The notes under the pieces were generated by a model that made no database searches, was not told the origin of the DNA, and saw only the letters and a list, made by a program, of their open reading frames with translations. 64,000 nt of DNA from Rhynchopus sp. YZ270_cl-10 (lineage: Eukaryota): contig OZ037846.1 in NCBI GenBank assembly GCA_964035575.1, forward strand, positions 1,302,001 to 1,366,000, read 5' to 3'. This document shows positions 4,035 to 62,266 of the stretch, in pieces. Made by a program: the position numbers and the translations under genes. Numbering within the stretch: the stretch's first letter is position 1; each line of letters begins with the position of its first letter.

Positions 4035-4712
4035 GCCTAATTACCCCTTATTTCTTTCTTTTTTGGTTTTGTTTTTTTTTTTAGTTTGGTTTATTGTTTT
4101 TTGGTGGTTCTGTTTTGTTCCATATTGTTGTTGTCAAGGTGACTAAGCACGATGCTTAGATTCATCTTTCGTTGTTTTTGTTTAGTTTTTATTTCTGTTC
4201 TTCTTCTTCTTCTTCTTTCAAAGGGATACTGAAACCACAAAAAAATGACACAAAAAATCACAAACATTCACAAAAAAAAATCACAAAAGATTCACTGAAT
4301 ATGTTTCTTTAGTGGTGGTGCCTGGTGAATCTTTTCGTTTGTGGATGTCTGTGGCTCACCTCGTATCCCCCTAATCTCAGTTGTTGGCAATAAACCAAGG
4401 TGCAGCACACCTTTCCTTCCGCCCCTGACTACACAAAGGGAGCAAGAAGCGAAGGGGGAAACTGCCCCAGTTTTTGCTTTTTTCTTATTCTTTTTTTTTA
4501 AGATTATGATAAGGTGACTAAGCAAACGAGAGGCTTAGGATCATCTTATAAACTTTTCTTTTTTTTACTGGGGGGGGGGGCGAATAAGAGATATGGCATC
4601 TATAAAGATTGGAGGCAGCGCTGCGGGGCAAACAAAACGGATTGAAAAAAGACAGAAGCTTGCTTGTTTTGTTTGAGTACTCAATTAACCACACACAACC
4701 GTACTTCAGTGT

Positions 4713-5792
4713 CAGGCTATTTCCTAACTCTGGGGCGTTTTTTCCAAAATTTCGAAAAAGAAATGCAAAAAAAGTGCGGCATTTTCGTGAGGTTTTTTTC
4801 CTGCCCAAGAGGGCGTTTTGTTGCATTTCCGAGCCAATCCCGGCTTGTGGTGGGGCATATTTGGAAAAATGGACAAAAATTTAGTGACTTAAATTTTCGC
4901 AAAATATGAACCCATACTCGTAAACAAGGGTCATTTTCAGGAAAATTCGGAAAATTCCGACATTTGGAAGCAATTTTCCCCCTGAAAAAAACAGTGGGTT
5001 TTCAGCTCCAAAACATACTGCGATTGGAATTTCCGGAATCCGCCCGCGCTGTGGTGGGGTCACTTTGCCGAAATGGCCAAATTCTTGGTTTTGGTCAAAA
5101 TCCATGTAGGGTAAAGAGGGCCAAGGTAAATCCCACAACCAAATTTTCTCTCCCTGATCCTGACGTCTTGCAACATGAAAATGCCCGAAAACACCGGCAT
5201 TTGCATTTCCGGAATCCGTGCGTTGTGTGGTGGGGTCAATTTTCCGAAATGGACAAGTTCTTGGTTTTGGTCAAAATCCGTCAGTGTAAGGTAAAGGGGG
5301 CAAGTGTTTGCCTGTAGAAACTGGTAGGGAACAAGAAGCGCCGCAGGCGCACGGTACCCAACTTTTTTTTTTTGTACCTTTTCTCCACTTTCTTTTGATT
5401 GCACGAGTTGATTGCTCTCCACGGTGGGGTCATATGTGTCCAAAAACACTCTAAGGTACTATTATTCTGAAATAAGATTCAATGGTTTCTTAAGGAATCC
5501 TCATATCGTGATATCTCTGAAAACCCTCGAAAACGAACCCCGCCGGAGGCGGCTTTTTTTTATACACATGTGCGCAAAAATACTTTTTTCTTGCTTATTT
5601 CGCACATTTGGGAGCACGGGACCCCAACATTTTTTTCCCTGGTCACTTTTTCCCAGACAGAAGTGCCCTACCTACCTTCCCCCTTAGGCGAAAAAAAAGT
5701 GCGGCAACCGGGAAAATTGGTCGGTAAAAAAAGTGCGGCATTTCCAAAATCTCAAATCCTAAAATCGAAACTCAGATTTAGGAAATAGCCTG
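4713..5792. mobile_element. hAT-type non-autonomous element
   Basis: TIR CAGGCTATTTCCTAA; 8-bp TSD TTCAGTGT at 4705-4712 and 5793-5800. Confidence 0.9.
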
Positions 5793-5914
5793 TTCAGTGT
5801 AACACATTTTTTTTTTTTTTTTCACCTTTTTGTTTTCCGGCTTTGAGCGCACAAGCAAAATACCCGATAATCCTTTTTCAGGTATTTTTTTTTTGCATAC
5901 TGTGAATAGGAGAT

Positions 5915-6564: not shown

Positions 6565-6667
6565 TTATACCCTACAAAAGCAGAGCTTGAAAGGAGAAAT
6601 AGTTCTTCAAGATACGGTCGCCAATCATCTCCCCTCTAACAGGGTTGGGTAATTGAGCAATCAACGG
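6565..6667 (+). repeat. Short structured repeat family F5
   Basis: TTATACC...AGGAGAAATAG...GGTCGCCAATCA...ATTGAGCAATC; other copies at ~10451, ~30666, ~59619, all on +. Confidence 0.8.
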
Positions 6668-7810
6668 AAAAAAAAAGTCTTTTTTATTTTCCTATCAGAG
6701 TTACTATTTTTCGTTTTAGTCGTTTTTAGTATTTTTGTGGTGCTCACTCTCACTCATACGGATGGGGGAAAAAGCAACAGATTTTTTTTTGCGGATAAAC
6801 GAAAGTTTTTTTTCTCTCTTTTCCTTCTTCTGATTCCCTCTTCATATCTTTGACGGCAGATTCCATTTCAAGGTGAACCCAAGCAAGGCAAGGCTTGGGT
6901 TATCTTTATATAACATACTATGCACACGCCCCGAGGGGGGCAAAATACCTCCTGAATAAATAAATACTCCAGACTGAGTCCAGGCTGAGTCTGGACTGAC
7001 TCACTCAGCCTGGACTCACCCCGGGTAAATATAACTCAGCCTGGACTCAGCCAAAACTCAGGCTGAGTCGGCCCGACTCGGCTGTTCTATGTTATATGTT
7101 ATACTTTTTTCATTTTGTTCACTTTGCTATCATAACCACAACAAACATAAAAAAAAAAAAAAAGCAAGGGTACTTTTTTAGCACCCTCTGTACCTTCTTT
7201 TCATGAGAAAAAGAATGTAAATTTATATGAAACACTACTTTTCTATATTTTTTTTGGACTAGATCTATCTTCTCGCTAACTAAACCTTTCCCTTTTCCTT
7301 TTCCTTCTCCTTTCCTTCTTGTTGTGCTCGGAGAACCTGATTGCCTGCGCCCACAAGAGGCATGTGCACTTTTCAACTTCTCTTTGTTGTTCGACTACGA
7401 GATGACTAGGTTCATCTTCTTTTTTTTTTTTTTTTGTGTTTTTCATGGTGGTTTTTGCAGGGTACTTTTGTGCTTTCATCCATGGCTGGCATCGTGCGTG
7501 GGTCAGTCGGAGGTGCCTGCATCAACAACTACAGTTTTTTTTTTTTTGTCGGGTTACGGTGTCATAGTCAGCCGCCTCCCGCAATCCCTAATCTCAGCGT
7601 CAAAAAAGCACGAATGTCTGTGAACCCTGCTGCCCCAGACAGCGTGGTTCTCAGGTGTTTGTTCTAACTGATGTGGTTTTGATTTTATTTTATTTTTGTC
7701 ATTTTTTTTTTTTTTTCGTGTCTACATCCCAAGAGGATTCTTTGCACAGTCCACTTCAAATACACTCTTCTTTATTGAAACACCCCTCCCCTTTTTGCAG
7801 TTTTCATATG

Positions 7811-8913: not shown

Positions 8914-9126
8914 TATATTCAAAAAAATTTCACAAAGCATTGTATCACAAAAAGCACGGATTTCCACGCTCAAAATAGGTTTTCCGTGCTGCATACTTTA
9001 TACACCCCGGATACTCAATATGCACCGTATTCTTCAATAGGCGACCCCCAGTAAGATAAATGCCTGATTATTCAAAGAGCCTGACCCAAGCCTCTCTCGT
9101 CCGGTCGCGTACCATGGGTTTCTATT

Positions 9127-9253
9127 GATCCTGGTCGTTACCTGAGGAGTGGAGGCGGGAGTAGGACGTAGTAGCGGTATCCACGAAACTAGAGATCAGC
9201 GAGGAATCGGCTGCGTGGAGCTCGCACGAAAAACAAAGCGAGGTGTCTACACG
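9127..9253 (+). ncRNA. Repeated structured element with hammerhead-ribozyme-like core (putative)
   Basis: CTGAGGA (9142) - GTGGA/TCCAC stem - GAAAC (9185); upstream GATCCTGGTC can pair with ACTAGAGATC. Second copy 61963-62085; diverged copy 57422-57513 lacks the core. Confidence 0.4.
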
Positions 9254-9961
9254 TTGGCAATTATTTAATTTTTCAAAAAAAAGAGGCCTTTTTCGAGTGA
9301 ACTTTTTGGAAAGTGGAGATTGCACAACTGGCAACACAAACCGAGGGCAACTACGCTACTCCAAAAATTTACCAAAAAATGAAAAAGGCTGTCAGCCCAG
9401 AGTCGATGTACTCTGCCACACCTTGGGGGGAGGTGTGCGGGCTGTACCCCTGCTTTTTTTTTTCCCCTCCATCATCTTTTACTACAAGGGCGGCCTCTGA
9501 GCCGTAACCTACAAACAACCTCCTTGCGACAGCAAAGAAGTACCGGGAGTGTTCCGCACTCACGAGAAACTTATCGTGGCGAAGGGGGGGTTTTTTTTTT
9601 CATAAAAGTTGCTCTTAAGGGTTCAGGACGACTGACGTCTGTACCTTCCGTAGTACAAAAGGCTTCGGCCAAACATTGAATACAAACCCTAGGTTCCCCA
9701 AGTGGGTCCTTAGGTGATTGTCGATACAAACAACAACAAAAAATATATCAGCCTTTCCCAGGGTGTGCTTTTTGAGCTCGGAAAGCAGCAGGAGAGGGTT
9801 TTCCTGGAAAAAATCTTGCTGCTCACAAATCTCGAAAAAAACCCCCCCTCGAAATTGCACCTATTCAGAATCAGGGCTGGAAAGGCTTCAAAAAAACCTC
9901 TTTATGCTTATGTACAGTGGAGCTCATTCTTGGGTGTCTACACTAATACAACTAAGTTATA

Positions 9962-10328: not shown

Positions 10329-11035
10329 TATAAAAAAGAGAGAAGAAATATTTTTATGCTTCATTCACTCGAACAACCCCTCTCCCCTAAGAAGGAGCAC
10401 GGATGAACAACGCAACACCTTCCCTCTCACAAATGAGTATACATTTTTCTTTTTATACCTACAAGCGTAGCTCAAAAGAGAAATAGTTCCTCAAGATACG
10501 GTCGCCAATCATCCCCTCCAACAGGGTAATTGAGCAATCAACGAAAAAAACCTTTTTTTTTTCCTTTTACTTACCCTATCAGACATACTTGGACCGCCCG
10601 AAATATATTTCGGGCATTTCGGGCGAATTAGGGGCGGATTTCGGGCGATTTTGTGCGCCCGAAGTCGCCCGAAAACGCCCGAAGTCGCCCGAAATGCAGA
10701 TTTCGGGCGAATTCGGGCGCTTTTTCCTTAGTGAAAACCGACTAGGTAGGGTTCTACTCATTTTCGCAAAAAACTTTTTATATTTGGAAGTATTTGACAT
10801 ACAAGTATAACGGCCGTCACGACGGGGAAATTTTTTTTTTGTCGGGGAGGTCACGGCCGTGAAGAAAATCTGAAAAATTTAACGGCCGTGAAATTTTGCA
10901 TTGATCACGGCCGTGAAATATTTCCACGCTTTTTGCTTGTTTCTTCTTTTTCGTTCGTAGACAGGGCCAACCCCTTTCCCATCCCTCCCAAGTCATTCTT
11001 GGGGGGTAAAAGCAACATAAAAAGTGCAAAAAAAA

Positions 11036-14446: not shown

Positions 14447-15574
14447 ATGGAGCCCATCAGCGAAGTGTTGAGCATAGCTGGGCTACGCCATGACGCTGCC
14501 AGCGCCTGTCAGAAGCTTGGGATCTGCAGTGCCGGGGATGTGGAAAGATTGGATGTGGCACGTGATATGCAGTACTTAGAGCAGCAGGGACTCACTTATG
14601 TTGATATCATTAAGATGAAGGAGGCGACGGAAACCTTGGGGAGACATCCAGTGAAGACAACAACTCTTGCGAAGGCGACGGGGAAGATGCACAGCCGCGA
14701 CTGGGTTGAACCAAACACCCTTTCCCCCGCACGATCTCCAAAACACATCGAAAATGCATCGTTCCTTGCAGGGATCTCCGCCACCACCTCGCATAAGGTG
14801 GCCAAGAGTAAGGCACAACGTCCGGTACAAAAAATTCATCCACAGTTGTATTTCGCAGATGAACACATTGCGTTGAGTCCCATCAGTATGCATCCCATCA
14901 AGCTGAGAGGTGTGGTATGGCCTACTGCATTGCATTACGTGGAAGGGGTGAGGCATGACCGTACTATTTATGCCGAATTGATCAGAAAAATTCACGATCC
15001 GGCGGATATGCTTGCCGCAAGCAAGAAGATCAGGCATTTTGCGAGGGGCACCGAAAAGGAGGATATGGAGCTCTGGAGGGAGGTCTTCGCAGCGAAGTAT
15101 TCGCAGCACGACAGCGCGCGGACCGGGTTGGTTGACACGGGAGATCTCGAGCTTGTGTACTCAGCGCCCGACGCGGTGTGGGGTGCAGGGCTGCACGGAG
15201 ACGGGGGTAACGTCATAGGGAAACTGCTCACCGAGGTCAGAACTAACATTCTGTACGGAAGTCTGCCGAGGTCATCGTCGCCGACTCCCCATATTGACAT
15301 TCCTACCTGTTCGGTCTGTGAAAAATACCCGCAAAGTGCAAACTCAACGTGGTGTACTTACTGTCGTGCTCATGTCCAACGTGGTTCTGATGAAAATGCC
15401 GCCGCGTTAGCACCGCGTGCAATGCGCGCAGAGTACCCCTTGTCGCGTGGCGCCTGTCGTATCTGTCAGCGGGTAAATGCTAATGCAGGGTTCTCGTGGT
15501 GTCAGACGTGCTTTGTGAAGGAGCGTGCAAGGCTCTATGGGAAGACAGAGCATGTACAGGCGAGGAGGTGTTGA
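14447..15574 (+). CDS. NADAR (YbiA/DUF1768-like) domain protein with SAM-like N-terminus and two C-terminal C4 zinc ribbons
   Basis: Motifs WPTALHY, AKYSQH...LVDTGDLELV...DAVWGAG...GGNVIGKLLTEVR match the NADAR pattern; C-terminal CSVC..WCTYC and CRIC..WCQTC. Confidence 0.85.
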   Translation: MEPISEVLSIAGLRHDAASACQKLGICSAGDVERLDVARDMQYLEQQGLTYVDIIKMKEATETLGRHPVKTTTLAKATGKMHSRDWVEPNTLSPARSPKHIENASFLAGISATTSHKVAKSKAQRPVQKIHPQLYFADEHIALSPISMHPIKLRGVVWPTALHYVEGVRHDRTIYAELIRKIHDPADMLAASKKIRHFARGTEKEDMELWREVFAAKYSQHDSARTGLVDTGDLELVYSAPDAVWGAGLHGDGGNVIGKLLTEVRTNILYGSLPRSSSPTPHIDIPTCSVCEKYPQSANSTWCTYCRAHVQRGSDENAAALAPRAMRAEYPLSRGACRICQRVNANAGFSWCQTCFVKERARLYGKTEHVQARRC

Positions 15575-16433
15575 GGAAGAAAATGTGAGAGAGTTGGCGC
15601 AAAGTTTCTGTTCTTTTTGTTCAATTTTTGTTTTGTAGGATAAGAGGGGTGCGGTGTGGTTTGTCTCCTTTTGTGCTGTGTGTTAGGAGTGATGTCGCGT
15701 TGTGCCCCCTCTTTTGTATTGTAGACCTTTTATTGATTTTTTTTTGTCAAATTTTGTACTTTTGTTTTTGCTAAAAATTCTAAAAAGAAAAAAATGGAGT
15801 TACCCCCTCTATCTTTCGTTTGACCCAAACATTGCTCACTTTGCTTTAAAAAACGCACATAAAAAAACCACATCTAACCAGAACTAACACAACCCCAACA
15901 CTTAACGTACCACCCCATCAAAAAAAAGGTTATCAACAGAAGAGAATAAACGCACCCATCGATCAAGAAAAAGCGAGAGTAAAAAAGGAGTAGGTAAAGC
16001 AACACCTAGGCCAAAGCAAAAAGCAAAAATATACGGCGGGAAAAAGGAAGCAAACCAAAAGGCATCAAACCACCTGCAACAATGTGCCTCTCGTCGTGCC
16101 AGATGGACGTTCAGGAGAGACAGGCACGTGCACAGACAAGGGGTCTCGAGAAGGTATTTCTTTTCCCTACCCACATGGCCCGCATCTTCCATCTTACCAA
16201 AAAAGACCCCCTATATTATATCCGTGTTGTTCTGCAGCACAACGATAGTTGGTAAAAGATGTTTGTGTGCACGGAGGAGAGCAAAAGAGTCAAAAGCTTT
16301 CTTTTGCTGTTTACAGTTTTCCCCTGCTAGAAACTCCCAAAAAATGCAAATACTCCTGTGTGGAGGGGTTTGATAGCCTTACAAAGTACTACAATGAAAT
16401 ACAATACAAAACAAACAAACTTTCAAACCTCCC

Positions 16434-17395
16434 ATGCAGCTACACTATATAACTGAATTGTTGGTACGTCGGTTGCGTACATTAATTTCACCTACCACCA
16501 CACAGGACACACGGCAGCATGCCATCAACCAGCGCATCGTTGATGTAGTGGCGCTCATTGACTACGTCTGCCGTATAAATGAGGACAGCACACCCAGCAA
16601 GACTGCCATCAGACCCACCTACGACCTCCTCACCACTCTTGCCGCGTCAACGCGCGCAGGGCCTGAGGTATGTAGCTATTCAGTTACAGCACTCCATAAA
16701 TTGGGCGTCTAAATAAGGCGGTTGGCGTTTTTTGGACCATATTTTGGAGTACTTTGCCCCTTTGAACATACAAAACACAGCTTCTGGTGACAATGCTTGC
16801 GTACATCACGCGTGTGACGGAGCAGGTGGACCTGCAGTACGCCAACGCGACCCACCTCGTGCTTGGGGCCTTCATCGTTGCCGCCAAGTTCTACGATGAC
16901 ACGATCGGGTTCTGTCCCAACTCGGTATGGCAAATGGATGATACAAAATGCTATCTTGTTGTGACTCTTTTTATTTGTGCTTGCATCCCCAGAGTTTGGG
17001 TGATCTATGAAACGGGGAGAGATTTTTTTTTTTTTCACTAGCTTCTCAGTAAGCTCTCACAGCCTGTTACGTGTCTCACGGAGACGGATCATAGATCATC
17101 CAAGAGCGGCTTTCATATCAGGTTTCCTTTTTACTGTAGGCGGCAGGGTACTTTGTGCTTTCATCCGGATGGCTGGCATCGTGGGTCAGTCGGAGGTGCC
17201 TGCACCAACACTTACAGTTTATTACAATAATAACATCACAAACAGGACTTCGCTGTCATTTCCTCGTCGAGTCTCTCTGACGTGAACAAGCTGGAACGCA
17301 CGATTCTCTCCCACCTGGACTGGAGCCTCCATGTAGATGCCGAAGAATACGAGGACTTAGTATCCATGATTGAGGAGCGTTCGTACCTGGCGTGA
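16434..17395 (+). CDS. Pho80/PREG (P/U-type) cyclin, spliced
   Basis: Exons 16434-16463, 16506-16667, 16781-16924 and 17246-17395 joined by GT-AG introns give ...IVAAKFYDD...NSDFAVIS...DVNKLERTILSHLDWSLHVDAEEY. The first 42-nt intron is in-frame and uncertain. Confidence 0.88.
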
Positions 17396-17952
17396 AAATA
17401 AAATAAAAAAATAAATGAAAAAAGAAAGAAAAATCCTTCAAAGAAAAATATTTTGTCGGCGTACATCCTTTGTGGGGGTTGTGCGCTGGGGGGGAAATAA
17501 AAAAGGAAAGGTAGTCATCATTTTTTTTTATATTTTGTTTTCGATATGTACGCATTGTCTGTGTACATTCAGATTTTTTTTTTTAGTTTTTGTTTTTTTT
17601 TGTTTGGGGGATTTCCTACAATGCCTACCTCGCTAATACCCACTTACTTTATAATACCCATGGTGTATCATCGTAAGTGGGTATTAGCAAGGTGGGCATT
17701 TCAGCAGCACCCTTTTTTTTTTATTATTTCTTCATCATGTTGACGGTTCTTTTCGTAAAGATGTGTATACCCGCCACGTTTTGCAAAATATGTCCAGAAA
17801 AAAAGCAAGGGTACATTTTTCGCACCCTCGTTGCCTTCTTTTCGTTTAAGAAAGTATATGATAACTCTTTCATGTAAAGATGTGTATACCCCTGCTTATT
17901 CGACTCTTTTCAACTTTTCTTATTTTTTTTTTTTTTTTTTTGTGAAAAAAAG

Positions 17953-18488: not shown

Positions 18489-19721
18489 AAAAAAAGAAAT
18501 GTTGTGCTTATCAATTTATTGAAGGCATGTGTTGAAATACTGTTTGTGTGGTATTGCAACGGCGCATCAAAGCATGTGTCGACAGAGAAAAAGAAGGGGG
18601 GGGGGGATAACAAAAAACAGATGAGTGACCAAGGAGGCCACTGTGCATCGTTCTTTGTGTTTTTTTTTTTTTTTCTTCCCCCAGTGCCTGCGTCCCACCG
18701 ATGTACGGTGAGGCGTTTAGCACAAAAAAAAAAAAAAATCAACTTATTTTTTCTCTTTTCTCTTTTGTATGTAGAGTATTCCCTATGAAAGAAAAATACC
18801 TTGTAACTGTTATCCCATAATAATAGTCTAAAAAGCAAGCATTATTTTTTTCTTTTTGTTGATTCCCCCCTAACAAATGACCCCAGTTACTTACCTAAGG
18901 TGGGTAATGAGGTGATTGTTGGGGGAAAAAGAATACAGGACAGCAGAAGGAAATCAACCCCGAAAAAAAGAGGCAAAACAACCCAGCACCTTTTTTGAAT
19001 GCAAAAAAAAAAAAAAGTAAAAATCTACATCCACATGACACTGTCATCGCAAATGATGGCATGGTGACACTCAGGGATCGCGTAGAAGTGTTTAGTATAG
19101 TGGAGTGCATCCTCGGGGTGACTACACTAATACAATCAAGAAAAAAATCTACTTTTTTTTTTAAAAAAAAAGGGGAATTGCGAAGTGTTCCCCTCCCACT
19201 CCAAGACAAGAACAATTAAACAGAGCACAAAGCACTTTCAAAACATACAAAAAGCATTTTCAAACTCCCCCTCCAAGACCTTACAGTGGCTGAGACAGAG
19301 GATAAGTCGCAATCTCATACAAAGTAACCCGCCCTTTCTCTCACCATCGAATTCGGTTTTCCTTCCCCCCCTCCCCCCCCCTACCCAGAGGTGATTTTCT
19401 CACACTTTGCTGGATGCTTCTTTGGCGCCCTTTTTGCCAAACAGTTCCCTCCCCCTCCCGCTTGTCCCCTTCCCAAGCAAGATGATGAAATATGAGGTGC
19501 TTAGATTCATTTTGCATTTTTTTGTTGTTCTCTTTCCTTTTCACCTATTAGCAAAAGCCAACTAAAAAAAAGGCTATTTTATTTGGGAAAAATGATTGTG
19601 TATGCCTGCTTACAGTTTTACCTGTAAGCAACACTCAGGGGGGGGGTTTGATGCCCCCCCCGTGGAGGGTCAGTGCCTGCGTCCCAGAGGCGTTTTGCAC
19701 TATCGCAAAGGGTGGAGCTTG

Positions 19722-19877
19722 CTGGCGACGCGGGATGAACCGAGAGCTGACTTAAGGTGCCCGAGTGGTCGCTCATCAGATCCCACAAAGGGTGTAGGTT
19801 CATCTAGACAGCAGGACGGTGGCCATGGAAGTCGGCATCCGATAATGAGTGTGTAACAACTCACCTGCCGAATGAAG
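19722..19877 (+). rRNA. Isolated 28S/LSU rRNA fragment (uL11-binding GTPase-associated centre region), pseudogenic
   Basis: CTGGCGACGCGGGATGAACCG...CATCAGATCCC...AGACAGCAGGACGGTGGCCATGGAAGTCGG...GAGTGTGTAACAACTCACCTGCCGAAT matches conserved eukaryotic LSU sequence; no flanking rDNA. Confidence 0.92.
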
Positions 19878-20167
19878 CTAACTTCACTTTAATAGTGGCC
19901 AATGCGTGTTATCGCTCTTTGAGGTTAATTTCCAGCATGCACAGAAAATAGTAAATTTTTTTTTTGAATCCTAAGCTAGACACACCGTATGTTGGTGTGT
20001 CACGTCTTCCAGTTTGTAAGAAGTTGAAAATGGGAAGTGCATTCATGTTTTACAAAAAAGAAAAAGGATTTTTCAACTTTATTTGTTTCTCTTTTGCTGG
20101 TTATCCCCTTTTGAAGCTTCTTCTGCATTGGCATTTTTTAGTTTGTTTTTTTTTTTGAAAATTGTAT

Positions 20168-21234: not shown

Positions 21235-22995
21235 AAGAAAACGGCAAAAAAAAAAAAAAGAGGAAAGCGACGTGCCGCGATGTTCACCAACCAAATTTTT
21301 TTCAAGAAAAAGAAAATAAAAACTTCATTGAAAATTTCGCACATTTCGAACAAAAAAAAAATTAAAACGAAAACGAAAACGAAACATTCCTTTTCCTCCC
21401 TCCAGCTCTGCATTGTCTGTTGCACGGGCCTTATTGAGCTAGAGAGAGGGGGAAAAAAAAACTTCATTTATCCTGTTTGTTACGTTTTGTCTTCTTTTTC
21501 TTCCCCTCTCGTTCCCCGGTTCAACTCTTTTTTTAAAAAAATGTGCCTTTTTTTTTTTTTTTTTTTGCATTTTTTTTAAAAAAAAGTGACAGGGGGCAGT
21601 CACTGCACACCACCGCCGCCTCTCACCCCTACTTTGCTCCTTTCCTTTTTCTTCCCCCTCCCGTCACAACACAGCCTAGCACTCACAACATCCAAAGAAC
21701 GAAAAACGGCTTCGGCCGATTGAGTACAGACCCTTTATACCAATAGGTCTAAAGGGTGATTGTCACTACAGCAAAAAAAAAAAAAAAAAAAACGGGAAGT
21801 ATGGTGTGGAGTTCATCCTCGGGTGTCTACACTAATAATCTTCAACAAAAAAAACAAAAAAATCGCACAAAAAAAAAAAAAAATGCTGTTGCGTGGCGAG
21901 AAAGCCACCCAAGATTGACTATCATGTTGCTGTAGTGCATCAAGGTTTTTTTTTTTTTTTAGAAGAGAAAAAAGTTTGTCCTGCACCAACAAGAGAAGGT
22001 CCTGTGGATATTGAGTACCCCGGGAGGTGAAGGAAGCGTTATTTATAAAGTCCAGAGCATCTTTGGTGGTGCCTGCACGATGAATAATAACGGTGAAAAT
22101 TAAGCAGGACTATGTTCGTCTCACCATTTTTTTTTTTTTTTAGTGACCGTGTGCATGCCAATGAAGTGCTCTCTGGGGTTCGATAAACCCAGTGTCTGCG
22201 TCCGCTGATGAATGGTGAGGCGTTTTGCACTTGCAGCTTCTCTCTCTCTCTCTCTTTTTTCTTTTTTTTCTACTGAAGTTTCAACTTGTGCACGAAGCAT
22301 TTTACTTTTCTTTTCTACGTTTTGCAAAACACACACCATAAAAAGAAAGATGGGACCATTTTTGTTGATCCCTCACCATATACTATCAATTTATTGATTG
22401 CATATGATGAAAATACTTTTTTTTGTTCTCTTTTCGATATTCGTACCCATCCCGCACTCCCCTCTTTCTTGAAAGAAGAAAAAATAGAAGAAAAAAAGAA
22501 GAAGAAAAAGCAGCAAAACAAAACAACATCACAAAGCAAAAAAAAAAAATCAAAAATCAAAAATTCTTCATAAAACCCCCAATTCAAGCCCCTTTTATTC
22601 AAGGTGACTAAGCATGAGAGGCTTAGGGGCATCTTATAAACTTTTTCCTTATTTGTAGCCTTTATTTTAAAGGTGTGCGTCCAACGTATTTTTAAATTCT
22701 GCTGTTCAGGAACGGGGCCCCATTTTTTTTTTTTGTTTTGTTATTTGCACCCCCCTGCAATTAATATCCCCCTTTTTGGCTGGGGAAAAGACAATCATCC
22801 CCAACAATATTGTGGAAACCAGCGCAGCTTTTGCTGTGCGATAACGAAATGTGATCAAAGGTGACTAAGCAAACGAGAGGCTTAGGTGAAGGGTCATCTT
22901 ATAAACTTTTCTTTATTTTCTTTTTTTTTCTTCAATATTCCACCCTTTTTCTCTCTCTCCCTCTCTTCCACTCCCTTTTTATTATTTGGATTTTT

Positions 22996-24231: not shown

Positions 24232-24377
24232 CGCACACTACTGAACGGAAAAGTGTCAACGTCGTTCACCCAACCGTGCTCCGCAACACCACCACCCAAA
24301 TAGGTAAGAGTATGTGTGGAAGCGTCAGCAAACAACTACAAGAAAGGGGGTGAGGGAACGACAAAGTGGCAGTTTTT
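24232..24377 (+). repeat. Short structured repeat family F8 (~145 nt)
   Basis: Nested helices AAAAGTGTCA/TGRCASTTTT, GTCGTTC/GAACGAC, CCGCA.CAC/GTGTGG. Other copies 30507-30663 and a MITE-interrupted copy at 31651/32147-32195, all on +. Confidence 0.8.
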
Positions 24378-43196: not shown

Positions 43197-44040
43197 TAGT
43201 TTTCTTTATTCATACAATTTTCTCTCTTGACGCAGCACAAATAATATAAAAGCCAACTCTTGGTTTTGCACATGAAAAAGCTGTGTTTTTTTTTCTATAT
43301 TGTTCTTTGCATTGGGTACATTTAGTGCACCCTATTACACCTTCTATTCAGTAGAATAGAAAAGTATTATAAAATAATGTTATTATTTTTGCATTTCCTT
43401 CCCCACTCCTTTGGCATATTTCTCGAGATGTAGGATTTTGTATGGGGTCCACCCCACATCATGGCACACTGTCACCGAGGTGGCTTTTTTGTTATTTTCA
43501 AATAAAAAAGACCTTTTTTTTTTTTTTGTGGCTACTGTGGGGAGGATTATGTACAATGCGCCCGTTTTACCATGTTCTCCGCACCTTTTTTTTGAGGGTC
43601 TTGTAATTAAACCCCCAAGGAAGTTACTACTCATGGCTAAGATCATCTCGCCAAACGTTATTCTGAGAGCCTGTGTGTATCTCACTACAGATCTATTAAG
43701 CAAACGAGAAGGCTTAGGGTCATCTTATAAAACTTTTCTGATTGTTTTTTTCCCTCTTTTCGTTTTCAAAGGTAACACCTCCGGGTATGCGGGCTCTGAC
43801 AGTCCGGAGTTCGATGACCCGCGGAGAGTCCCTGAGGCGTTTGTACTATCAACTTCACTTTTTTCTCTCAAGATGACGAAGCCAAGAGGGAGAGATCATC
43901 TTATTTTATAAACAGTTGTGCGCACGTACGAGAGGCACATTTTCATTATTTCAAGTCTTCTTACAAAAAGATTTGTTTGATGTGCATGTGTTTCATCTTG
44001 ATCTTTTCTTCTTTTCTTTAAGTCATTAGGTTTCCTTTTT

Positions 44041-44125
44041 ACTGTAGGCGGCAGGGTACTTGTGCTTTCATCCGGATGGCTGGCATCGTGGGTCAGTCGG
44101 AGGTGCCTGCATCAACAACTACAGT
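44041..44125 (+). repeat. Structured repeat family F7
   Basis: Nested helices ACTGTAG/CTACAGT, GCAGGGTAC/GTGCCTGC, GGCTGGC/GTCAGTC. Copies at 7457, 17133 (inside cyclin intron 3) and 30825, all on +. Confidence 0.85.
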
Positions 44126-44424
44126 TTCTTTGGTTTTTTCTGGAGATATAATGCAATCTGTCGCAATCTTTCATAAAAATTTTCTATAATTTATTTACAA
44201 AAAAAAAAAAAGCTTATTTACAAAACTTGTTACGAAGAACAAAAAAACGTTTTGCAGTCTTCATATTTACAACGGAAGGCAGCAGAGTCTACACTGGTAG
44301 CTAGGCTATTCAATAATATTTACAAAAACAAAAACAAAAACAAAACAAAAAACAAAAACACCACAGTGAAGACTGTCTTTTTGGCAGCTACACTACTCCA
44401 ACAAATTATCAAACAAAAAACAAT

Positions 44425-44471
44425 TAGTGGAGCACACTCTAGGGTGGCTACACTAATACAACCAAGTTTTC
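44425..44471 (+). repeat. Short hairpin repeat family F2 (and related F3)
   Basis: TAGTGGAGC-hairpin-KCTACACTA-ATACAACCAAGTTTTC at 9915, 19097, 21803, 26803, 28769, 30115, 40228, 52302, 59505 (+) and one partial reverse copy at 62104. F3 (GTGGAGATTGC..GCAACTACAC) at 9312, 26727, 44385, 59139. Confidence 0.88.
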
Positions 44472-47627: not shown

Positions 47628-48115
47628 TTTTTTATTTCATTTTTTTTTTTCTCGAAGTTATCATTGGCTAACCTCATTATTTTGGTGACTAAGCAACGAG
47701 AGGCTTAGGGTCATCTTATAAAACTTTTCTTTTCTTTTTTCTTTTTCTTTTCTTTTCAAAATCATCTTCGCTTCTTAACCGTTTTGTTTTTCGTAGGATG
47801 GGTACTAGATGTCTGCGTGTGGTACACCTAAGGCTGTTTCGTCTTTGCGAATGGGTGTAAAATGTGTGGTTTTGTTTTTGTTTTTTTTTTCATTCGCAAG
47901 ATGCTCTGTTTTCTTTGGTGATGCAGATTTAAAAAAAAAAGGAAATACTACGGTGTCAATAACTATCTTCGCCCACACAGGAAAAACGGGAAACGAAATA
48001 GGGGGAAAGTTTGTTAGTTGTACGCTTCCACCCTTCCACACACACTCAGGACTGTTGTAATGCTCTTTTTGTTATCTTTTCAGTTATTTATTTTCTTCTT
48101 CTACTTGATCCTTGT

Positions 48116-51875: not shown

Positions 51876-51917
<42 letters not shown>

Positions 51918-52701
51918 CGTTTTGAAAACTGATATGTTTACAAAAACAGAGCCAAATAGAAAAGGTAAGAAAATGAGAGTCCTGAAGTACAGAAAGTGGT
52001 GTGTGAGAAGGGAGGAGCACAGGTGAGGGTGAAAACAGTTAGAGCGACCGTAGCATTTCCCCTGTCAACTGCGTTTGACCTATAAGAAAAAAAAAATATA
52101 GGAAAAAAAAATACCCCTTTTCAGAAGGGGGGGGAAAAATACAGTATCACACCAAGGTGGACTCATTTAAAAAAAATCGTCAATTTTTCGCCAAAAAAAT
52201 GTCGATACTGAAAATACACGTGTTGGGAACGCGCGTGACCATATTTTTTTTTAGTCTGGGCGTTTTTTTTTTCACTGGCGTGACGGGAAAAAAAAAAGCA
52301 TATAGTGGAGCACACTCTAGGGTGGCTACACTGATACAACCAAGTTTTCAAAAAAAAAAAACGTCACGCTCGTTCCCAATCCGTGGAAGAAAAAAAAACA
52401 AAACAAAAACAAAAGCAAAAAAAAAACAAAAAACGGTACGAAAACAAAAATCGCATATTTCTTTCTCCTTCTGACCTTCTGACATTCTGACCTCCAATCA
52501 CATGCACTGGGCACTCCATTGCTATAACCTGTATATTATTTTATCATGGCCGTGGGAACTACACTCTCTTCTTATCAACAACCCGCGGACCACCCTGCAT
52601 CCACCGGTGTACGGCGTTTTGCACTTTCAACTCTTTTCCCCCCCTCAACCCTACCTTCACCACACACACACCTCCAGCATCACAAAAGCGAACACCACAC
52701 A

Positions 52702-54035
52702 ATGCTCAACACAACACGCCCTGAGATGTGGTGGCGCGAGCTGCCTGCAGAGCTTTCCTTCACCCGCCCCGCCGAGATGGCACGGTGGGCCATGGAGACC
52801 GCAAGCGACCCACGCACCAAAGAATGGCCTACTATGGCGTCACCAAGCTTCAACTGGAGCTGCTCGCTGCTGTACGTCCTCTTTATCTATTTGGCACCGA
52901 AGGTGATGGAGAAACGCGCTGCGTGGGATCTTCGTTCCGCAATGGTTGTGTACAACGTTGGAGTCATTCTACTGAACCTTTACATGTTCCTCGAGATTCT
53001 GCACCAAACCGTTATGTTGGATATGAGCTGGGTCGGCAACGCGGTTGATTACTCTGAGAAAGGTACCGGGCTTGCCGCGGTGTTGTACTTATACTATATG
53101 TCGAAGCTTGTGGACTATGCCGACACCTTCTTCCTTGTCATGCGCAAGAACGCCCACCAGCTCTCCTTCCTGCACGTCTACCACCACACCTTCATGTTCT
53201 GGGTGTGGTGGCTCGGGATCCGCTTCGCGGCCGGGGGCGACTCCTGGTTCTGCGCCTGGGTGAACTGCTTTGTTCACGTCGTGATGTATTCCTACTACCT
53301 TTCTTCCTGTCTGGGGATCCGTCTGCAGGGAAAGCGCTATGTGACTCAGGTATGTTGGGTAAGAGGGAGGTTTTTTTAAGGCTTTGGCGTCATTTTAAAG
53401 AAAGCTTTAAAAAAGCTGAAAAGCGATGAAAACCATGCCGACCTAATTCATTGGTGGTGAGTCAGGGCAGGGGGGTTTCCACGTTGGTTGAGGAGCAACC
53501 CACATATGGGGGTAGACGGGGGTGAAACGTTTTTGTTTTGAATTAAACTCTTTCCCCCCAAACCCCTTTTTTGTCTTTGTTTTCTTTATCCAAACGGCAA
53601 GTGGATGCGTAATAATTTTGTCTTAGCCTTGCTGTTCCCTCGATAAACCATAAATTGTTGGTTGTTGGATCGCACGAAAAAAAAAAAGGCGAGGTGAAGT
53701 CGATCAATTTATCAATTTGTCAAAAAAAAAAAAAATAACACACTTTTTTACAGCTCCAACTCCTGCAATTCGTGCTTGTGATTGGACACTCGGCATACTC
53801 GCTTCACATTGACGCACACTACCCACACTGGATTCTGTGGGCGCTGATCGGCTTCCTCTCTTCGCTGTTCATGCTCTTCAGCAACTTCTACATCCAGGCA
53901 TACTTTAAGGGGGGGAAGAAGTCCACCAAGACTGCGTCCGACTCTGTTAAGGTGGCAAAGGTGACTAAGGTGGACAACCCTGTCCGTGAGCCCTCCGTAG
54001 ATGCGAAAGACTCAGGGCTCCGGAAGAGAATATAA
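52702..54035 (+). CDS. ELO/GNS1-SUR4 family fatty-acid elongase, two exons
   Basis: Exons 52702-53349 and 53754-54035 (GTATGT...TTACAG intron). Motifs KLVDYADT, FLHVYHH, NCFVHVVMYSYY, TQLQLLQF, LFSNFY; basic C-terminus RKRI. Start codon inferred. Confidence 0.95.
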
Positions 54036-54393
54036 AATCCGCAAATAAATTCGAAAAAAAAAACTTTGTTCCGTTTTTGGAGCGAAGTGATTGTCGACAC
54101 AACAAAAAACAAAAAAAATGGGGGATTGATTTTTTGACGGTCCCTAGAACCTCCGTTCTGAGGGAAGGAAGCAACTGTTAGGTTTTACCTTCTCCATTCC
54201 CGTTTCTCTCCCCCCCACCCCCTCCTACTAATTGACAAACAGTGCAATTGAAAAAAAAAAAACCCCCCAAGAAATACAAAGCTTTTTTTTTTGCTTCGAC
54301 ATTTGAAAATACTGTAAAAAATAGGTGCACCTCTGATTGTTTCTGGAAACTTTGCGAGCATCCATCCCTCTTCCCTTCCCCCCCCCCCCTAGG

Positions 54394-56958: not shown

Positions 56959-57919
56959 CATACCGTGCAGACGAGTCGTCTACTCGTCTATCCTCGTCTT
57001 TTTGGGTCACGACCCAAAAACTCGTCTTTTTACTCGTCTTACTCGTCTATCCTCGTCTCATACTCGCCTATCCTCGTCTATCCTCGTCTGTACTCGTCTA
57101 TCCTCGTCTTGACGAGTGCTGTACTCGTCTCATACTCGTTTGTTAGGCCCTGTGAGGTGCTCACGGGTGAGCGTTGTCCGGCCAGCCAGTAGACCTCTTC
57201 GCCGGTGTCTTTCTGTGTCTTGCAGTTGACAGTACCAAAGTCCATTATTAATGTACTTTTGAGTAACCCGTACAACTGTCTCGTGTGTTCCAGTGTGTCG
57301 ATGTTGTCTGGTGATCGATATTGCTCTCCATCTCCGCACGTAAACGTGCTGCAACACAAACGTTCCACCTACGTTACCTACAACTGCTCAGATGGCAAAG
57401 GGGAAGGGGAGGGGGAGGGGACTCGTTACCTGACGTACAAGGAGGCAGGAGCACATAGTAGCGGTATCCGAACTCCGAAATAGGAAGGTGACAGCTGCGT
57501 GGAGATCACACGACTACACGTCTTCAATTTATATACAATGGGTTTTTGCCGCTGTGCATTGTAGTATATGTAGTATATACGTACCTCCCCCCGTGTATTT
57601 GTCCTGTGTATATGTCCGTGTTGGTCGAGGCTCGGACATATCCGCAAACCCGCAAAAGGAATATACACATGCCTTCTGACATTACACATGCCGGACCTAT
57701 GCACAGTTCAGGTAGTATATACTACATATACTACAGTGCGCAGCGGCAAAAACCCATTCCGAGCTTTCCGTCCGGTACGTTGGCGGGGCATCTCCGGTCA
57801 TATGTGTATAGATGTATATAAAATGGGACACTCGTCTGTACTCGTCTGACGAGGATAGACGAGTATCGAGACGAGGATCGCCACTCGTCTCACTCGTTCC
57901 GACTCGTCCGCATGGTATG
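56959..57919. mobile_element. CATA-terminus TIR element, 6-bp TSD
   Basis: CATACCGTGCAGACGAGTC / GACTCGTCCGCATGGTATG; TSD CCTAGG; ACTCGTC subterminal repeats. Contains a 44-bp-arm inverted repeat at 57537-57758. Confidence 0.9.
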
Positions 57920-60900
57920 CCTAGGGGAGGGTCACTGGGTGAACAAAATCCATTTTTTTGAAATTTAAATTTAGACCGTTCTAAGTACAAAAAAACCATA
58001 CATTCGGACCCTGGGGGTGTGGGAAATGAATTTCCGCCCGGTTTTGACCCACTATATACCCCAGAGATTACTTTTTTGAGCTTCTTGAAAAAATGAGACA
58101 GAACTTGTACCTACCCACCGAGACGGAACTTGAACCTTTTCACCCCTCCATTCATCGAACCTAAATGCGGTCTATCTCCGGTGTAAAATCACTCAAAACC
58201 CCCTAAAAAATGCCACGGGGTGTGAAAAATCCCCAGAACGCGCATGAGACTGCGGCTAAGTTTGTTGCGAGGCCTTCTATTTGGAAGCTGCCTATGTGTC
58301 AGGTGCCTTTGGATAAGGTACAGAGCGCTGTGGGGAGCCAGTTGCGGGGTCTTGTTTGGCACGATGTTGCAGGGAGCTGGAGGACTGTGACTCTTGCTCA
58401 AACTTGCTGGGACTGGGACTCTTGCTCGTACAGTGACTCCCGCTCTTGTGAATCTCACTTCATCCTCTCTGTCCCGACTCTCTCTCCACTCACGCCCCAC
58501 TGCTCACGGTGCCCCCGGCACTACCCCAACCCCAAAAAAACACTTCCAAAAGTGTCAAATATGTCCAAAACAGGTTGGAATGGACTCACAGGCCACTTTT
58601 GGGGTATATTTGTGCCAAAGAAGGTTTTGTGATGTCAAAAAATAACCGTTTTTTTGGTTTTTTCTTGAAAAATCGCTATTTTGCCCAAAATGGCCAAAAC
58701 CGCCAAAAAGCCGTTTTTTCACTATTTTTTTCCATTTTTTTGTATTCTGGGGTGGCTTCTGGGTCGTTTTTCGGCCCACAGGCCCCCTGTGACCCACTCT
58801 GAGGGTGTTTTTCACCCGCAGTTGCCTTGGAGATGACCAGAAGTTTAATAATGAGTTTTTGGTACGGTCATTTTACTCACAGTCGTATCCCCTACCCCCT
58901 CTTTTTTTGGAGGGGTGAATGACAGGGGCGGGAAAACAGCCTTGAAGAAATTACTTGAAAATCATCAAGTGCAGACACAAATTTCTTCTTTCCTTTTGCG
59001 CAGCAGTGGCAGGTGGCGTACTGTGGTCTGGCTGAGCGCATCCCTGAACCTATACGTTCTATATGCACCCAAAACGGTCCTGTACGCGCCAAAACGCGGG
59101 GTAAAACATCAGGTGGAATTGTCGAACAAAAAACAGACAGTGGAGATTGCACAACTGTGGCAACTACACTACTCCAACAATTTATCAAATAAAAAAAGAT
59201 TGCATGTATCTTATCGAGGGAGCCCTATTGTACTTTTCTCTTCTTTGATTTGAAAGTATGAAACCATTTTATTTTTATTATTTTTTTTTTGAAAGCTCCC
59301 CCCAAAAAACAGAACTAATATTTGACCCTTACCCCCCCAAAGTGGGAAAAGTAAACTATTTTGAGTAGATTCGTCTTTCCAGAGACATTGAGTTCTGTCT
59401 TGGGTAGGCGATAATGTACTCGAAATTTAATCCGACAAAAAATGAAGAAGCGAGGGAGGGAAGGGAAGGGAAGGGAAGGGGAGGGGAGGGGGTAAATTGA
59501 ATATACGGTGGAGCTCATCCTCGTACACAACCGAGTTTTCCAAAAAAAGAAGAAAAAAGAAAAAAGAAAAAGAAAGAGGTTGTTCGAGCATCTGAGCCCC
59601 CCCTTTTTTTGTGTATTTTTTATCCTAAGCGTAGCTTAAAATGAGGAGAAATAGTTCCGATATCGGTCGCCAATCACTCAAACAGGGCAATTGAGCAACC
59701 AGAAAATCGCAAAAAAAAGTGCAGCCGGATTTCTGATGCATTTTCATGGTAAAGTGCATCAGAAATACACTACAAAGCACCACGGGGAACTTTTGTAAAA
59801 AAAAAAAACTTGGTTTGTAAAAAACTAGGGGTTTTTTCACACCCCTCATGTTTTTTTTTTTTACTGACCCTTCTTTTTACTCTGTGGTCACTTTTGTAAA
59901 GACTTTCGCGGCTTCTATCACGCGAAGAACGATGTATCGAAGAAACACAGTTCCTACAAGGTGACTGACTCACTTAAGAGAACGAGGCCGATGATGTTGT
60001 CTCTGAGACGTGGTTATTATTATTATTTTTTAAATTTGTGTCGCCCGCCTGATTTTTACCCCGCGTAAAGGCGTGTACGGACGGTCCGTATATGCCTGTA
60101 CGGTCCTATACGGCCCTATACGCGCCTATACGCGGGGTAAAAATCAGGTGGGTTGCGTGCAAAAATACCTTCAAGGCTCTCTGCAAGAAACTGCTCTGTC
60201 GTCACGAAGCTCTTTCAGCAGTTCTCTTTGTTTTTTTTTAAAAGGGTATTTTGCGTCTGCGCACTTTTTGTGTATCCTTTAATAAGAAGGTGTGCGCTGA
60301 GATGAGACTTTCCCTTCACATTGTTGTGCTCGTTCTCGGGGTGACAAAAGGAAGCTGTGTATTATCCTTTCCTCCAAAAAGTCAATATGGTGCTAACCTC
60401 TTGTTGGAAATAATGGGCCAGATCATTGCTGTGTGTGTTTTTTTTTGTTTCTTTTTCTTTTTTTAGGATATTTTGTACATTTTTTTTTCGCCGAAATTCG
60501 GTGAATGCGAATCCACAAGAGGCGTTTGCACTCGCAGGTCACATTTTTTTGATTGTGATCAAGGTGGCATAAGCACGAGGGGCTTAGGGTCATCATTTTT
60601 TTTTTATTTTAAGTCGCGGTTGTACGCGAACTTGCAAGGAAAAGAGGATATGGGTCGGTTCAGTGTATTCCACAGAACCGACACCTTTTGGTATGTCTCA
60701 GCTGAAAACCAAATAATTTTTATATAAAAGAGTTTTTGAAGGAAAGAAAACCCATCATGTTTTTGACTTTTTGATTGTACTCACACAATTCCCCTCTTTG
60801 TTCTCAAAAGTACAAAAAAAGCAACAATTTTTTTTTGTAAAAACCAAAATGGTTGGCAATCTTGCAAATGGTGATACATTGTGGGCTGTCGATGGACAGC

Positions 60901-62266
60901 AAAATCAGAATTATATCATGCAAACGATTGACGAAGAAGAACAGATTAAGAAGACAGTCTAAACAGAGATAGAGAACGAAATTCCCGTCTGAGACTCTCG
61001 TTCTATTCGAAAACAAAAGAAAAAAATATGGCCGTCGAAAAATTTCCGAAAAATGGACGGATTTCCCTTTGGTTTTGTAGCGATTTTGCTTACACATAAC
61101 TCGAAAAACACCATCCAAAATGAGACGAGAGTGGGGTGTTTTTTTCTTTTCTTTTTTTTTTTTTTTCTAAATATTTTATGATTTCTTCAATATTTCTCAG
61201 GTAACTTTCTTTTTAAATTTTTTTTAAAACTTTTTTTTAGGGTGCAGTGTTGAGAGGCGCATTCACCATTCAATGGTGCTTTCGGAAGTCGGTCAACGAC
61301 CTGTCAGCGACGTGTCACGACCTGTCGGTGACCTGTCGGCGACCTGTCAATATCAGGGGGTGTGTGTATAGAGTCCCTGTGTCAGCGACCTGTCAATATC
61401 GACCCCTCCCGGAGCACCATTCAAGATTATTTTTTATGTTTGGGAAAGGGGGAAAAGATATAGTACGCAGTGCAGGGAGGTTATCATTCACAATTCAAAA
61501 CGTGGAGTCGCCCTCCCTAGAATTTACGCTAGTCAGCTAAATGTGGGGGGGTGGGGCTGCGTCAAAAACAGAATTTACCCGTTTCTGCCTGCCGTTGATC
61601 TTTGTTACCCCCTCTCCATACACACGCCCAGATCCTTCACCCATCTCCACGAGCATTTTGCCGCAAACCCCGGAAAGACAAAAACAAAACAAAAACAAAA
61701 AAAAAAAACAAAAAAAAAATCTAGAATTTTAAATAGGATATGCTCCTAAGTCAAGCATTCCCCATTCTCCCACGACACCCTTCCCCCCGATTAAAAAAAA
61801 AAGGTGATTGTCGAAACGACAAAAAAATACCGTTTCTAAGCAGGCATTTCTCCAAAAAAAAAGGGGGATGGGCATTGCCTACAGGGCTTTTTTCTATTTC
61901 AAATTAAAAAAAAACCTGCCCAAACCCTATCTCACCCGGGCCTAGCTACCCGGGTATCCAATGATCTCCCGTTCGTTACCTGAGGAGTGGAGGTGGGAGT
62001 AGGACGTAGTAGCGGTATCCACGAAACTAGAGATAGGCGACGAACGGCTGCGTGGAGCTCACACGAAAAAAAGCGAGGTGTCATCGATTAATTATTTATT
62101 TTGAAAACTTGGTTGTATTAGTGTAGACACGCTTATTTTGTTTTTACACCTTCGTTGTTCGCTGTCGGGTGTATTTTTTATTTTTGCTTTTTCATCGGAA
62201 TATCAATCATCAACCAAAACACACCACCAAAAAAGGGGGCGAAAAAAAACAAAACAAAGGTAATAA

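Follow-up and report, generated by a model that had tools for sequence, protein, structure and literature searches.

A 64,000-nucleotide stretch of the Rhynchopus sp. YZ270_cl-10 genome (contig OZ037846.1, positions 1,302,001 to 1,366,000; hereafter the window) carries nine families of short repeats, and 54 of their 55 copies lie on the plus strand. We lean, without pressing the point, towards reading these families as SINE-like (short interspersed element-like) retroposons that have no promoter of their own, are predicted to fold into RNA hairpins and would be copied back into the chromosome by a borrowed reverse transcriptase. The families are real and apparently undescribed, and are of a kind with a published analogue; their small size, shared helix modules and near-absolute polarity are new here.

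Copies were collected by self-comparison, by profile hidden Markov models seeded on the repeats and by two covariance models (CMs), with cutoffs of E<=1e-3 for nhmmer and E<=0.002 for the CMs. We count 12 copies of F1, 10 of F2, eight of F3, six of F4, four of F5, three of F6, five of F7, four of F8 and three of a family with a hammerhead-like core (HH). They are non-coding, dispersed and 20-180 nt long, at a density of about one per 630 bp of available non-coding DNA. The total of 55 excludes weaker matches, for instance at 7397, 19473, 23678, 29625, 43868 and 59508 (all +), as well as a few weak minus-strand matches at E>0.04 (30528, 30796, 45790 and 48015). The labels F3, F5, F6 and F8 were assigned in this analysis, the numbering of the initial annotation being known only partly. 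That annotation had proposed about nine families and some 50 short repeats, almost all in gene sense, with a partial F2 at 62104 as the single minus copy; our census agrees, and places the exception at 62104-62130. In the following list, copies of F1, F2 and F8 were found by profile search and CM, except for the F1 copy at 6869 (profile search), and a model of the 3' tail recovered three short F3 copies.

4129..4168, +, F1, 8-bp stem, 2-nt 3' bulge, 5-bp stem
4506..4555, +, F1
6869..6912, +, F1, CCAAGC/GCTTGG double change, GCAA loop
22598..22643, +, F1
22843..22908, +, F1 with 5' extension
23904..23962, +, F1 with 5' extension
24735..24782, +, F1
26294..26350, +, F1 with 5' extension
27140..27199, +, F1 with 5' extension
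43691..43733, +, F1, 5' part lost
47684..47724, +, F1
60549..60597, +, F1 with 5' extension
9916..9958, +, F2, AGTGGAG/CTACACT helix with G.A mismatch, AC-rich tail
19098..19140, +, F2
21805..21842, +, F2
26804..26849, +, F2, immediately after F8
28769..28813, +, F2
30115..30160, +, F2
40226..40272, +, F2
44425..44470, +, F2, immediately after F8
52303..52348, +, F2, about 200 bp upstream of the elongase start
62104..62130, -, F2 3' half, sole antisense copy, tail-to-tail with an HH copy
9604..9729, +, F3 full-length, C(UUCG)G hairpin, A-rich tail (profile)
35874..36003, +, F3 full-length (profile)
40992..41221, +, F3 split at TA by a miniature inverted-repeat transposable element (MITE) at 41035-41142 (profile, repeat clustering)
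21699..21771, +, F3, 5'-truncated (profile)
25040..25070, +, F3, 3' tail only (profile)
28190..28235, +, F3, 5'-truncated (profile)
54080..54104, +, F3, 3' tail only, about 45 bp after the elongase stop (profile)
61801..61821, +, F3, 3' tail only (profile)
18681..18725, +, F4, 3' hairpin only (profile)
19597..19886, +, F4 full copy, interrupted by a ribosomal RNA (rRNA) piece (profile)
19705..19878, +, insert within this F4 between CTATC and AACTTCAC; from 19753 eukaryotic large subunit (LSU) rRNA in sense (128.7 bits)
22160..22242, +, F4, 5'-truncated (profile)
28538..28646, +, F4 (profile)
40641..40768, +, F4 full copy, filled site, 8-bp direct repeat TTTATTGT on both sides
38164..38334, +, empty site, paralogue of 40498-40797 without F4
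43781..43861, +, F4 (profile)
6571..6720, +, F5 with 3' extension (profile)
10457..10583, +, F5, 3' extension split by a 3.75-kb terminal inverted repeat (TIR) element (10584-14334, repeat ATCAGA) (profile)
30670..30756, +, F5 in an F6-F5-F7 run (profile)
59623..59703, +, F5 (profile)
24230..24377, +, F6, long closing stems, invariant 21-nt core (profile)
30505..30665, +, F6 (profile)
32147..32246, +, F6, internal deletion (profile)
7456..7537, +, F7 (profile)
17117..17220, +, F7 in the last GT-AG intron of the cyclin gene (profile, contigs)
30816..30889, +, F7 (profile)
40120..40176, +, F7, diverged (profile)
44025..44127, +, F7 (profile)
9312..9379, +, F8, outer helix as in F2, upper stem different
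26727..26796, +, F8
44365..44417, +, F8
59139..59193, +, F8
9074..9254, +, HH, type-I hammerhead-like core (CTGAGGA at 9142), then F2-type helix (CM, core scan)
61909..62089, +, HH, core at 61980 (core scan)
57421..57529, +, HH, decayed core, inside a TIR element (profile, core scan)

Strand concordance within families is far beyond chance (p=1.6e-13), and when copies are merged at 1 kb, 17 of 18 clusters are entirely on the plus strand (p=1.4e-4). The polarity is near-absolute also within introns and within a 35-kb gene-free stretch. Six further F1-like loci that had no part in training the CM and score weakly (E 0.12-2) are all on +, and a reversed-sequence control produced no match below E=0.05. 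When dispersed repeats were clustered without selection, seven of the eight non-F families with at least three copies showed mixed orientation, against one of eight F clusters; DNA-transposon ends in the window lie both ways, as the earlier remark on transposon cargo had it. These unselected counts stand in place of a Fisher test on five hand-picked mixed families, which was set aside.

Could T-tract targeting, named beforehand as an explanation that would undo the polarity, account for it? Runs of at least eight number 127 for T and 96 for A (57:43), and even with a prior of 57% the polarity keeps p=1.6e-12. Right flanks are rich in T in F1, F6 and F7 (53-68%) and in A in F2, F3, F5 and F8 (55-72%); because the T-flanked (F1, F6, F7) and A-flanked (F2, F8) families face the same way, we reject this cause. 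Clustering of the families into arrays was likewise rejected: there are 44 clusters against 39 in simulations, a placement like random.

Fixed 3' ends combined with ragged 5' ends are clear in F1, F3 and F4; the ends of F2, three copies of which are nearly identical, are fixed on both sides. The F3 copies, one of them split and the others 126, 130, 73, 46, 31, 25 and 21 nt long, make up a 5'-truncation series in which the 3' end does not vary and the tail is A-rich; the 3' end is kept in 8/8 copies and the 5' end is missing in 5/8. F1 (3' tail in 9/12 copies, 5' extension in 5/12) and F4 resemble F3 in their 3' anchoring, but with T tails. DNA transposons have inserted into one F3 (the MITE) and one F5 (the TIR element), so these split copies are older than the insertions that interrupt them. 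Another form of nesting occurs in one F4, where CTATC and AACTTCAC are separated precisely at their junction by a sense LSU rRNA piece; in 41-55 contigs that stem from other F4 loci, the sequence runs on directly with AACTTCAC and the T run.

The plus strand folds better than the minus strand in 38 of 54 stretches tested, against a background of 49%, an advantage carried by F1 (10/11), F2 (8/9), F7 (5/5) and F4 (5/6). Columns of G-U and of A-C type stand at 16:5 in F1 and F2/F8 (p=0.027; structure-fitted alignments). High covariation scores from structure-fitted alignment that included opposite-strand shadow matches were not used. All helices quoted by the initial annotation are present: AAGGTGAC/GTCATCTT in F1, CCAAGC/GCTTGG at 6869, GCGTC/GGCGT in F4 and GGCTGGC/GTCAGTC in F7. 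Its proposal that folding is specific to the plus strand is supported for F1, F2, F4 and F7, while F3, F5 and F8 do not discriminate.

Several helix modules recur from family to family. An AGTGGAG/CTACACT helix with a G.A mismatch closes both F2 and F8, and the same type of helix, with a basal A-U to C-G change, forms the 3' end of HH. A GAGG(C) turn is common to F1 and the 3' hairpin of F4, and the last helix of F1, F4, F5 and F7 leads into ATCAAC or a closely similar motif. F7 starts with a pyrimidine tract plus AG and is the only family with a closing repeat (7 bp). In the F6 copy at 30505-30665, a 5' segment is complementary to the invariant internal core, so that pairing of the two would create a long-range pseudoknot; this segment is partly lost in the 24230 copy.

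Scanned against Rfam at E<=1 over its whole length and at E<=10 in four local stretches, a check that had been proposed, the window gave a match only for the LSU piece and none to signal recognition particle (SRP), 5S or tRNA families; a tRNA scan found none either. Nineteen representative copies were free of C, A and B boxes and of Sm sites, and neither F1 nor F2 has a guide pocket. The F1 pattern has no match in viral and metagenome contigs, nor the F2 pattern in prokaryote genomes. Likenesses considered for F2/F8 (twister), the F4 3' hairpin (7SL Alu domain) and TACAGTTT in F4/F7 (spliced leader), as well as to SECIS and K-turn elements, were dropped as unsupported; F1 has the topology of group II domain V without its catalytic triad, and this likeness was dropped too.

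A hammerhead core with stem II occurs at two sites, both of them HH copies on the plus strand, against 0.02 expected per shuffled window. CUGANGA, stem II, GAAA, NUH and stem I are present in two of the three copies, which are dispersed monomers, not tandem repeats. Stem III is one A-U pair closing CUAGAGA, which contains the CUAG palindrome. Judged by its sequence, this type I core, with an almost absent stem III and the palindrome, appears to fit the Penelope type described in PMC6765202 and PMC6155905. The core has no match in viral contigs, nor HH against phage records.

Reads were examined over 14000-19720, in four of seven listed runs. In the DNA run X1, depth summed across repeat family bins is about 57-1290 times single-copy, which suggests, as a rough estimate, tens to about a thousand copies genome-wide, read depth being no copy number and a poor expression measure, from contigs that show no strand. 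A second run, X5, is treated as RNA-like because one of its contigs skips the three GT-AG introns of the cyclin gene, although it is not recorded as RNA. The X5/X1 ratio is 0.12-0.53 in seven short-repeat bins and 0.10-0.25 in gene bins, against 0.005-0.018 in four transposon-end bins and 0.071 in a fifth; the repeat families are thus roughly 10-100 times better represented in X5 than most transposon ends (a rough, unstranded comparison). Downstream of the cyclin stop, X5 contigs over 18751-19108 and 19224-19695 have depths of 25-27, against 33 for the spliced contig. About nine of 15 joints represent other loci at which two different short repeats are connected (F7 to F4, F4 to F7, F7 to F2), and none of the 15, shown out of 90, involves a strand change, which hints at genome-wide co-orientation.

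The elongase encoded at 52546 shares 80% identity with a protein of Rhynchopus euleeides, about 73% with that of R. humris and 68-70% with those of two Diplonema species, so the host is a diplonemid; alignment of this elongase revealed no related locus in metagenomes. The window represents one gene cluster. As the initial annotation had it, the repeats match the gene strand, since all four genes identified by Pfam are on +; among 134 further open reading frames (ORFs) on either strand there was no credible Pfam match. All four introns checked have GT-AG borders. The genes are as follows.

1..1236, +, BspA-type leucine-rich repeat (LRR) gene (Pfam)
14447..15574, +, NADAR-domain gene (Pfam)
15881..17827, +, cyclin-like gene, whose three GT-AG introns an X5 contig skips (Pfam, contigs)
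52546..54036, +, fatty-acid elongase gene (Pfam, 80% identity to Rhynchopus euleeides)

From 17400 to 52500, 35 kb within this one-way cluster contain no recognisable protein gene. In Diplonema papillatum, genes form unidirectional arrays of up to 120, and intergenic regions can exceed 10 kb; that genome has about 2500 retroelement-protein gene models, RNA interference (RNAi) genes and Helitron-like ORFs, about 3600 28S pieces and 1400 nuclear mitochondrial segments (NUMTs) are scattered through it, and post-transcriptional control is expected in the diplonemid lineage (PMC10161547).

The window holds other repeats. Between 47943 and 52088, two 99.5% identical 176-nt segments (48166-48341 and 51911-52088), each following a T run of 34-43 and A-tailed on the minus strand, enclose a 3.4-kb block with 49-bp tandem arrays and a 91-bp exact repeat (47943, 48342); the whole is possibly a CRE/SLACS-like or other retroelement relic in antisense. 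A single hairpin in a cyclin intron (16995-17105, GGGTGATCTATGA/TCATAGATCATCC) folds better on + and has about 100 times single-copy depth; it is a further family related to the F1 outer helix. More co-oriented families, with two copies or high depth, lie at 19205-19341, 29660-29745, 25090-25141, 7157-7202, 17798-17843 and 16400-16470; they are AC-rich or weakly folded on +, and since they fold better on the minus strand their sense is undefined. Another repeat occurs in two introns in the same orientation (53540-53619, 62611-62717), with an opposite third copy (46379-46489) in transposon cargo at 45000-47627. Long (GGGTACT)n arrays occupy two related TIR elements (1642-2376, 37234-37960), and a (GTGTACCT)n array lies within another (55040-55435). 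A transposon-end family of about 2000 times single-copy depth and mixed orientation (5338, 12915, 13117, 18098, 18245, 20222, 35190) is strongly under-represented in the RNA-like run. Inside an inverted-repeat element, a 168-aa open frame (25343-25849) has no Pfam match; by eye, we take it to resemble the C-terminus of a hAT transposase.

How would the nine families have spread while keeping one orientation? The chromosome would be read through on one strand, as shown in a relative, so that sense copies would be transcribed without a promoter of their own, the A and B boxes being absent. The processing of mRNA may then free short RNAs from the long transcript; for HH, release would be by the Penelope-type hammerhead just upstream of the F2-type helix. 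A LINE- (long interspersed element) or Penelope-type enzyme would recognise the 3' helix and AC-rich spacer and prime on an A or T run matching the RNA tail. Such priming would leave fixed 3' ends, ragged 5' ends and duplications hidden in homopolymer runs. The weakest step is the sense landing: where DNA is transcribed, its template strand may serve for priming, and the few copies that land in antisense may be lost, since the lineage has RNAi and such copies would pair with sense copies nearby. With age, copies decay and receive DNA transposons, as seen in F3 and F5. In favour of retroposition stand the 3'-anchored truncation, the A- or T-run tails, the Penelope-type hammerhead core in HH and a pair of F4 sites, one empty and one filled, with an 8-bp direct repeat at the filled site.

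A number of observations weigh against this scheme. Pfam scans of the window found neither a reverse transcriptase ORF nor an autonomous partner. There is no excess of target-site duplications (TSDs): direct repeats of at least 7 bp flank 6 of 62 loci, where controls average 4.0 and reach at most 7, in a count that by design left out homopolymer-only repeats. As regards TSDs, this agrees with the earlier statement of no TIR/TSD pattern, except at one locus, the F4 at 40641..40768, where the 8-bp repeat TTTATTGT flanks the filled site and the paralogue at 38164 is empty. Even here, a deletion by microhomology in the paralogue that lacks F4 could account for the repeat, whose 5' copy looks like the beginning of F4 itself. 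Folding does not discriminate between strands in F3 (+ better in 2/5), F5 (1/4) and F8 (2/4). The double change at 6869 is present, but the compensatory change claimed earlier lacks statistical significance: in F1, 223 of 500 shuffles reach the observed covariation, which is not significant, and the signal in F2 plus F8 is weak (16/500 shuffles by cells, 36/500 by score); 1/33 pairs covary in F6 and 0/19 in F7, the copies of each being too few. In HH, two nucleotides are inserted between stem I and the core, the third copy (57421) has no intact core, and Rfam does not score the core as a hammerhead. Retroposition by itself does not impose a sense orientation: most spacer SIDERs in Leishmania lie in antisense (PMC2689281), as would, in the window, the A-tailed 176-nt repeat of 48166 and 51911. 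The limits given above for read depth, for the status of X5 and for the sample of joints count on the same side.

Would other mechanisms do better? G-T pairs and GNRA-like loops also stabilise DNA hairpins, and the repeats might be single-stranded DNA elements (Helentron-, REP- or IS200/605-like) whose imperfect hairpins are read as DNA by an HUH enzyme. Orientation would then come from one replication fork, and the match with genes from coincidence or from origins at transcription starts. The lack of a TSD excess, insertion in homopolymer runs and imperfect hairpins with a fixed G.A mismatch in F2/F8 suit this idea, as do the Helitron-like ORFs of D. papillatum (PMC10161547). We nevertheless hold it to be unlikely, given a hammerhead core fused to an F2-type helix, enrichment over transposon ends in the RNA-like run and the co-orientation of T-flanked and A-flanked families; neither inverted pairs as in BIMEs nor subterminal inverted repeats were seen. 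Helentrons (or HINEs) in particular were rejected on the latter ground, T-tract bias being insufficient for the polarity. A more radical scheme, with no known counterpart, is RNA recombination with write-back: structured RNAs would be cut and ligated into a nascent transcript, which would template repair of its own locus, with modular hairpin RNAs and bystander RNAs (28S pieces) joining the polycistronic transcript at a shared junction between ATC and AAC. Forced sense orientation, no target duplication and helix modules shuffled between families would follow, and the polarity in introns and in the 35-kb gene-free stretch, the lack of a TSD excess, the modules common to several families and the sense LSU rRNA piece, joined bluntly within the ATCAAC motif behind the final helix of F4, F5 and F7, all agree with it. 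However, the rRNA insert is a single case and may be ordinary break-repair capture, D. papillatum having both 28S pieces and NUMTs scattered through its genome (PMC10161547). Truncation anchored at the 3' end and the tails agree with ordinary retroposition, and no enzyme was identified; we consider the scheme distinctly improbable.

Two further explanations treat the repeats as functional. Sense hairpins might have been domesticated as cis signals that steer trans-splicing, polyadenylation or mRNA decay, like SIDERs in Leishmania. X5 contigs downstream of the cyclin stop have a depth near that of the spliced contig, one F3 tail lies 45 bp after the elongase stop, F7 has its 5' pyrimidine tract plus AG, and post-transcriptional control is expected in the lineage (PMC10161547). 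Yet with about one copy per 630 bp, random-like placement (44 clusters against 39 simulated), many copies decayed or broken by transposons, no fixed distance from genes and weak covariation, there is little chance that this is the explanation, and the processing or regulatory role suggested by the initial annotation gained no supporting evidence. Multi-copy ordinary small-RNA genes in polycistronic units (small nucleolar RNA (snoRNA) clusters, or SRP-, tRNA- or spliced leader-derived genes) would likewise be in sense orientation in introns and spacers, and in F7 and F3 an ACA-like triplet precedes the T run by 3 nt. This we find hardly credible: Rfam yields only the LSU piece, no tRNA was found, none of the 19 copies has a box (C, A or B) or an Sm site, a guide pocket is absent from F1 and F2, and depth implies tens to about a thousand copies. 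A snoRNA identity (C/D or H/ACA) was rejected, with no C box in the 19 copies and no relevant Rfam match above chance.

Is there a known system to which retroposons of this kind would belong? Leishmania SIDER1 and SIDER2 are alike in many respects: the host is euglenozoan with directional clusters, and the elements are non-coding, decayed, high-copy, intergenic, in sense excess and present in RNA (PMC2323293, PMC2689281). The analogy drawn with SIDERs in the initial annotation is thus supported, a sense excess within directional gene clusters being common to both. SIDERs are oriented in sense at about 4:1 overall and in antisense in spacers (PMC2689281); L1Tc shows about 10:1 sense, with about half of the copies without TSD (PMC5814959), and vestiges of TSDs, of about 13 bp, remain in 18.9% of SIDER2 copies (PMC2323293). 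The polarity is therefore less surprising than first claimed, since a sense bias of euglenozoan retroposons is already published. However, SIDERs have a 79-bp signature, known ingi parents and a sense excess that is reversed in spacers (PMC2323293, PMC2689281), whereas our repeats measure 20-180 nt, belong to many unrelated families and have a 54:1 polarity that includes spacers and introns. They also have no TSD excess and, as judged by an HDV descriptor and Rfam, no HDV-like (hepatitis delta virus-like) fold on +. The descriptor, a relaxed one, gave no match on + and one unrelated site on -, and no HDV family appeared in Rfam.

The Trypanosoma cruzi pair L1Tc/NARTc offers a short non-autonomous partner freed from polycistronic RNA by a ribozyme, again with sense excess; NARTc has a 5' HDV-like ribozyme plus an internal promoter (Pr77), (PMC5814959), whereas here a ribozyme-like core, of hammerhead type, occurs in one of nine families. 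The repeats are thus not members of SIDER or NARTc (no HDV-like head), nor are they classical SINEs (no RNA polymerase III head). Penelope minimal hammerheads and non-long-terminal-repeat retrozymes share with HH the type-I core, near-absent stem III, CUAG in loop III and a unit of about 180 nt, and animal retrozymes avoid introns (PMC6765202, PMC6155905, PMC8557442, bioRxiv 10.64898/2026.07.22.740005). Unlike them, HH consists of dispersed monomers with a 2-nt insertion, no Penelope ORF was seen, and the other eight families are coreless. T. cruzi SIRE is also a short non-autonomous interspersed euglenozoan element, but it measures about 430 bp and corresponds to VIPER repeats (PMC6681497). 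Dispersed 28S pieces in D. papillatum likewise are 28S fragments outside rDNA in a diplonemid; here the piece lies in F4 at a defined junction, and the main text of PMC10161547 names no such hairpin families. We found no account of such families in diplonemids in the literature covered, which does not include the repeat supplement of PMC10161547, a source that may bear on novelty; seven other supplements of that paper have no mention of SINE, hairpin or Penelope. The available parts of PMC8557442, PMC6681497 and PMC12278014 contain nothing on diplonemid elements. CA-rich intron motifs are described in R. humris (PMC12621601) and may include the AC-rich tails seen here.

Diplonemids are abundant marine protists, thought to control their genes after transcription, and their non-coding DNA is barely annotated. 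A dense set of hairpin repeats locked in the sense orientation in introns, untranslated regions and spacers offers material from which mRNA control can be built, as it was from SIDERs in Leishmania. They also make a question testable: does the sense bias of retroposons in polycistronic genomes arise from insertion or from later selection? Each genome is likely to contain thousands of copies, enough for a direct measurement of how orientation varies with age and position.

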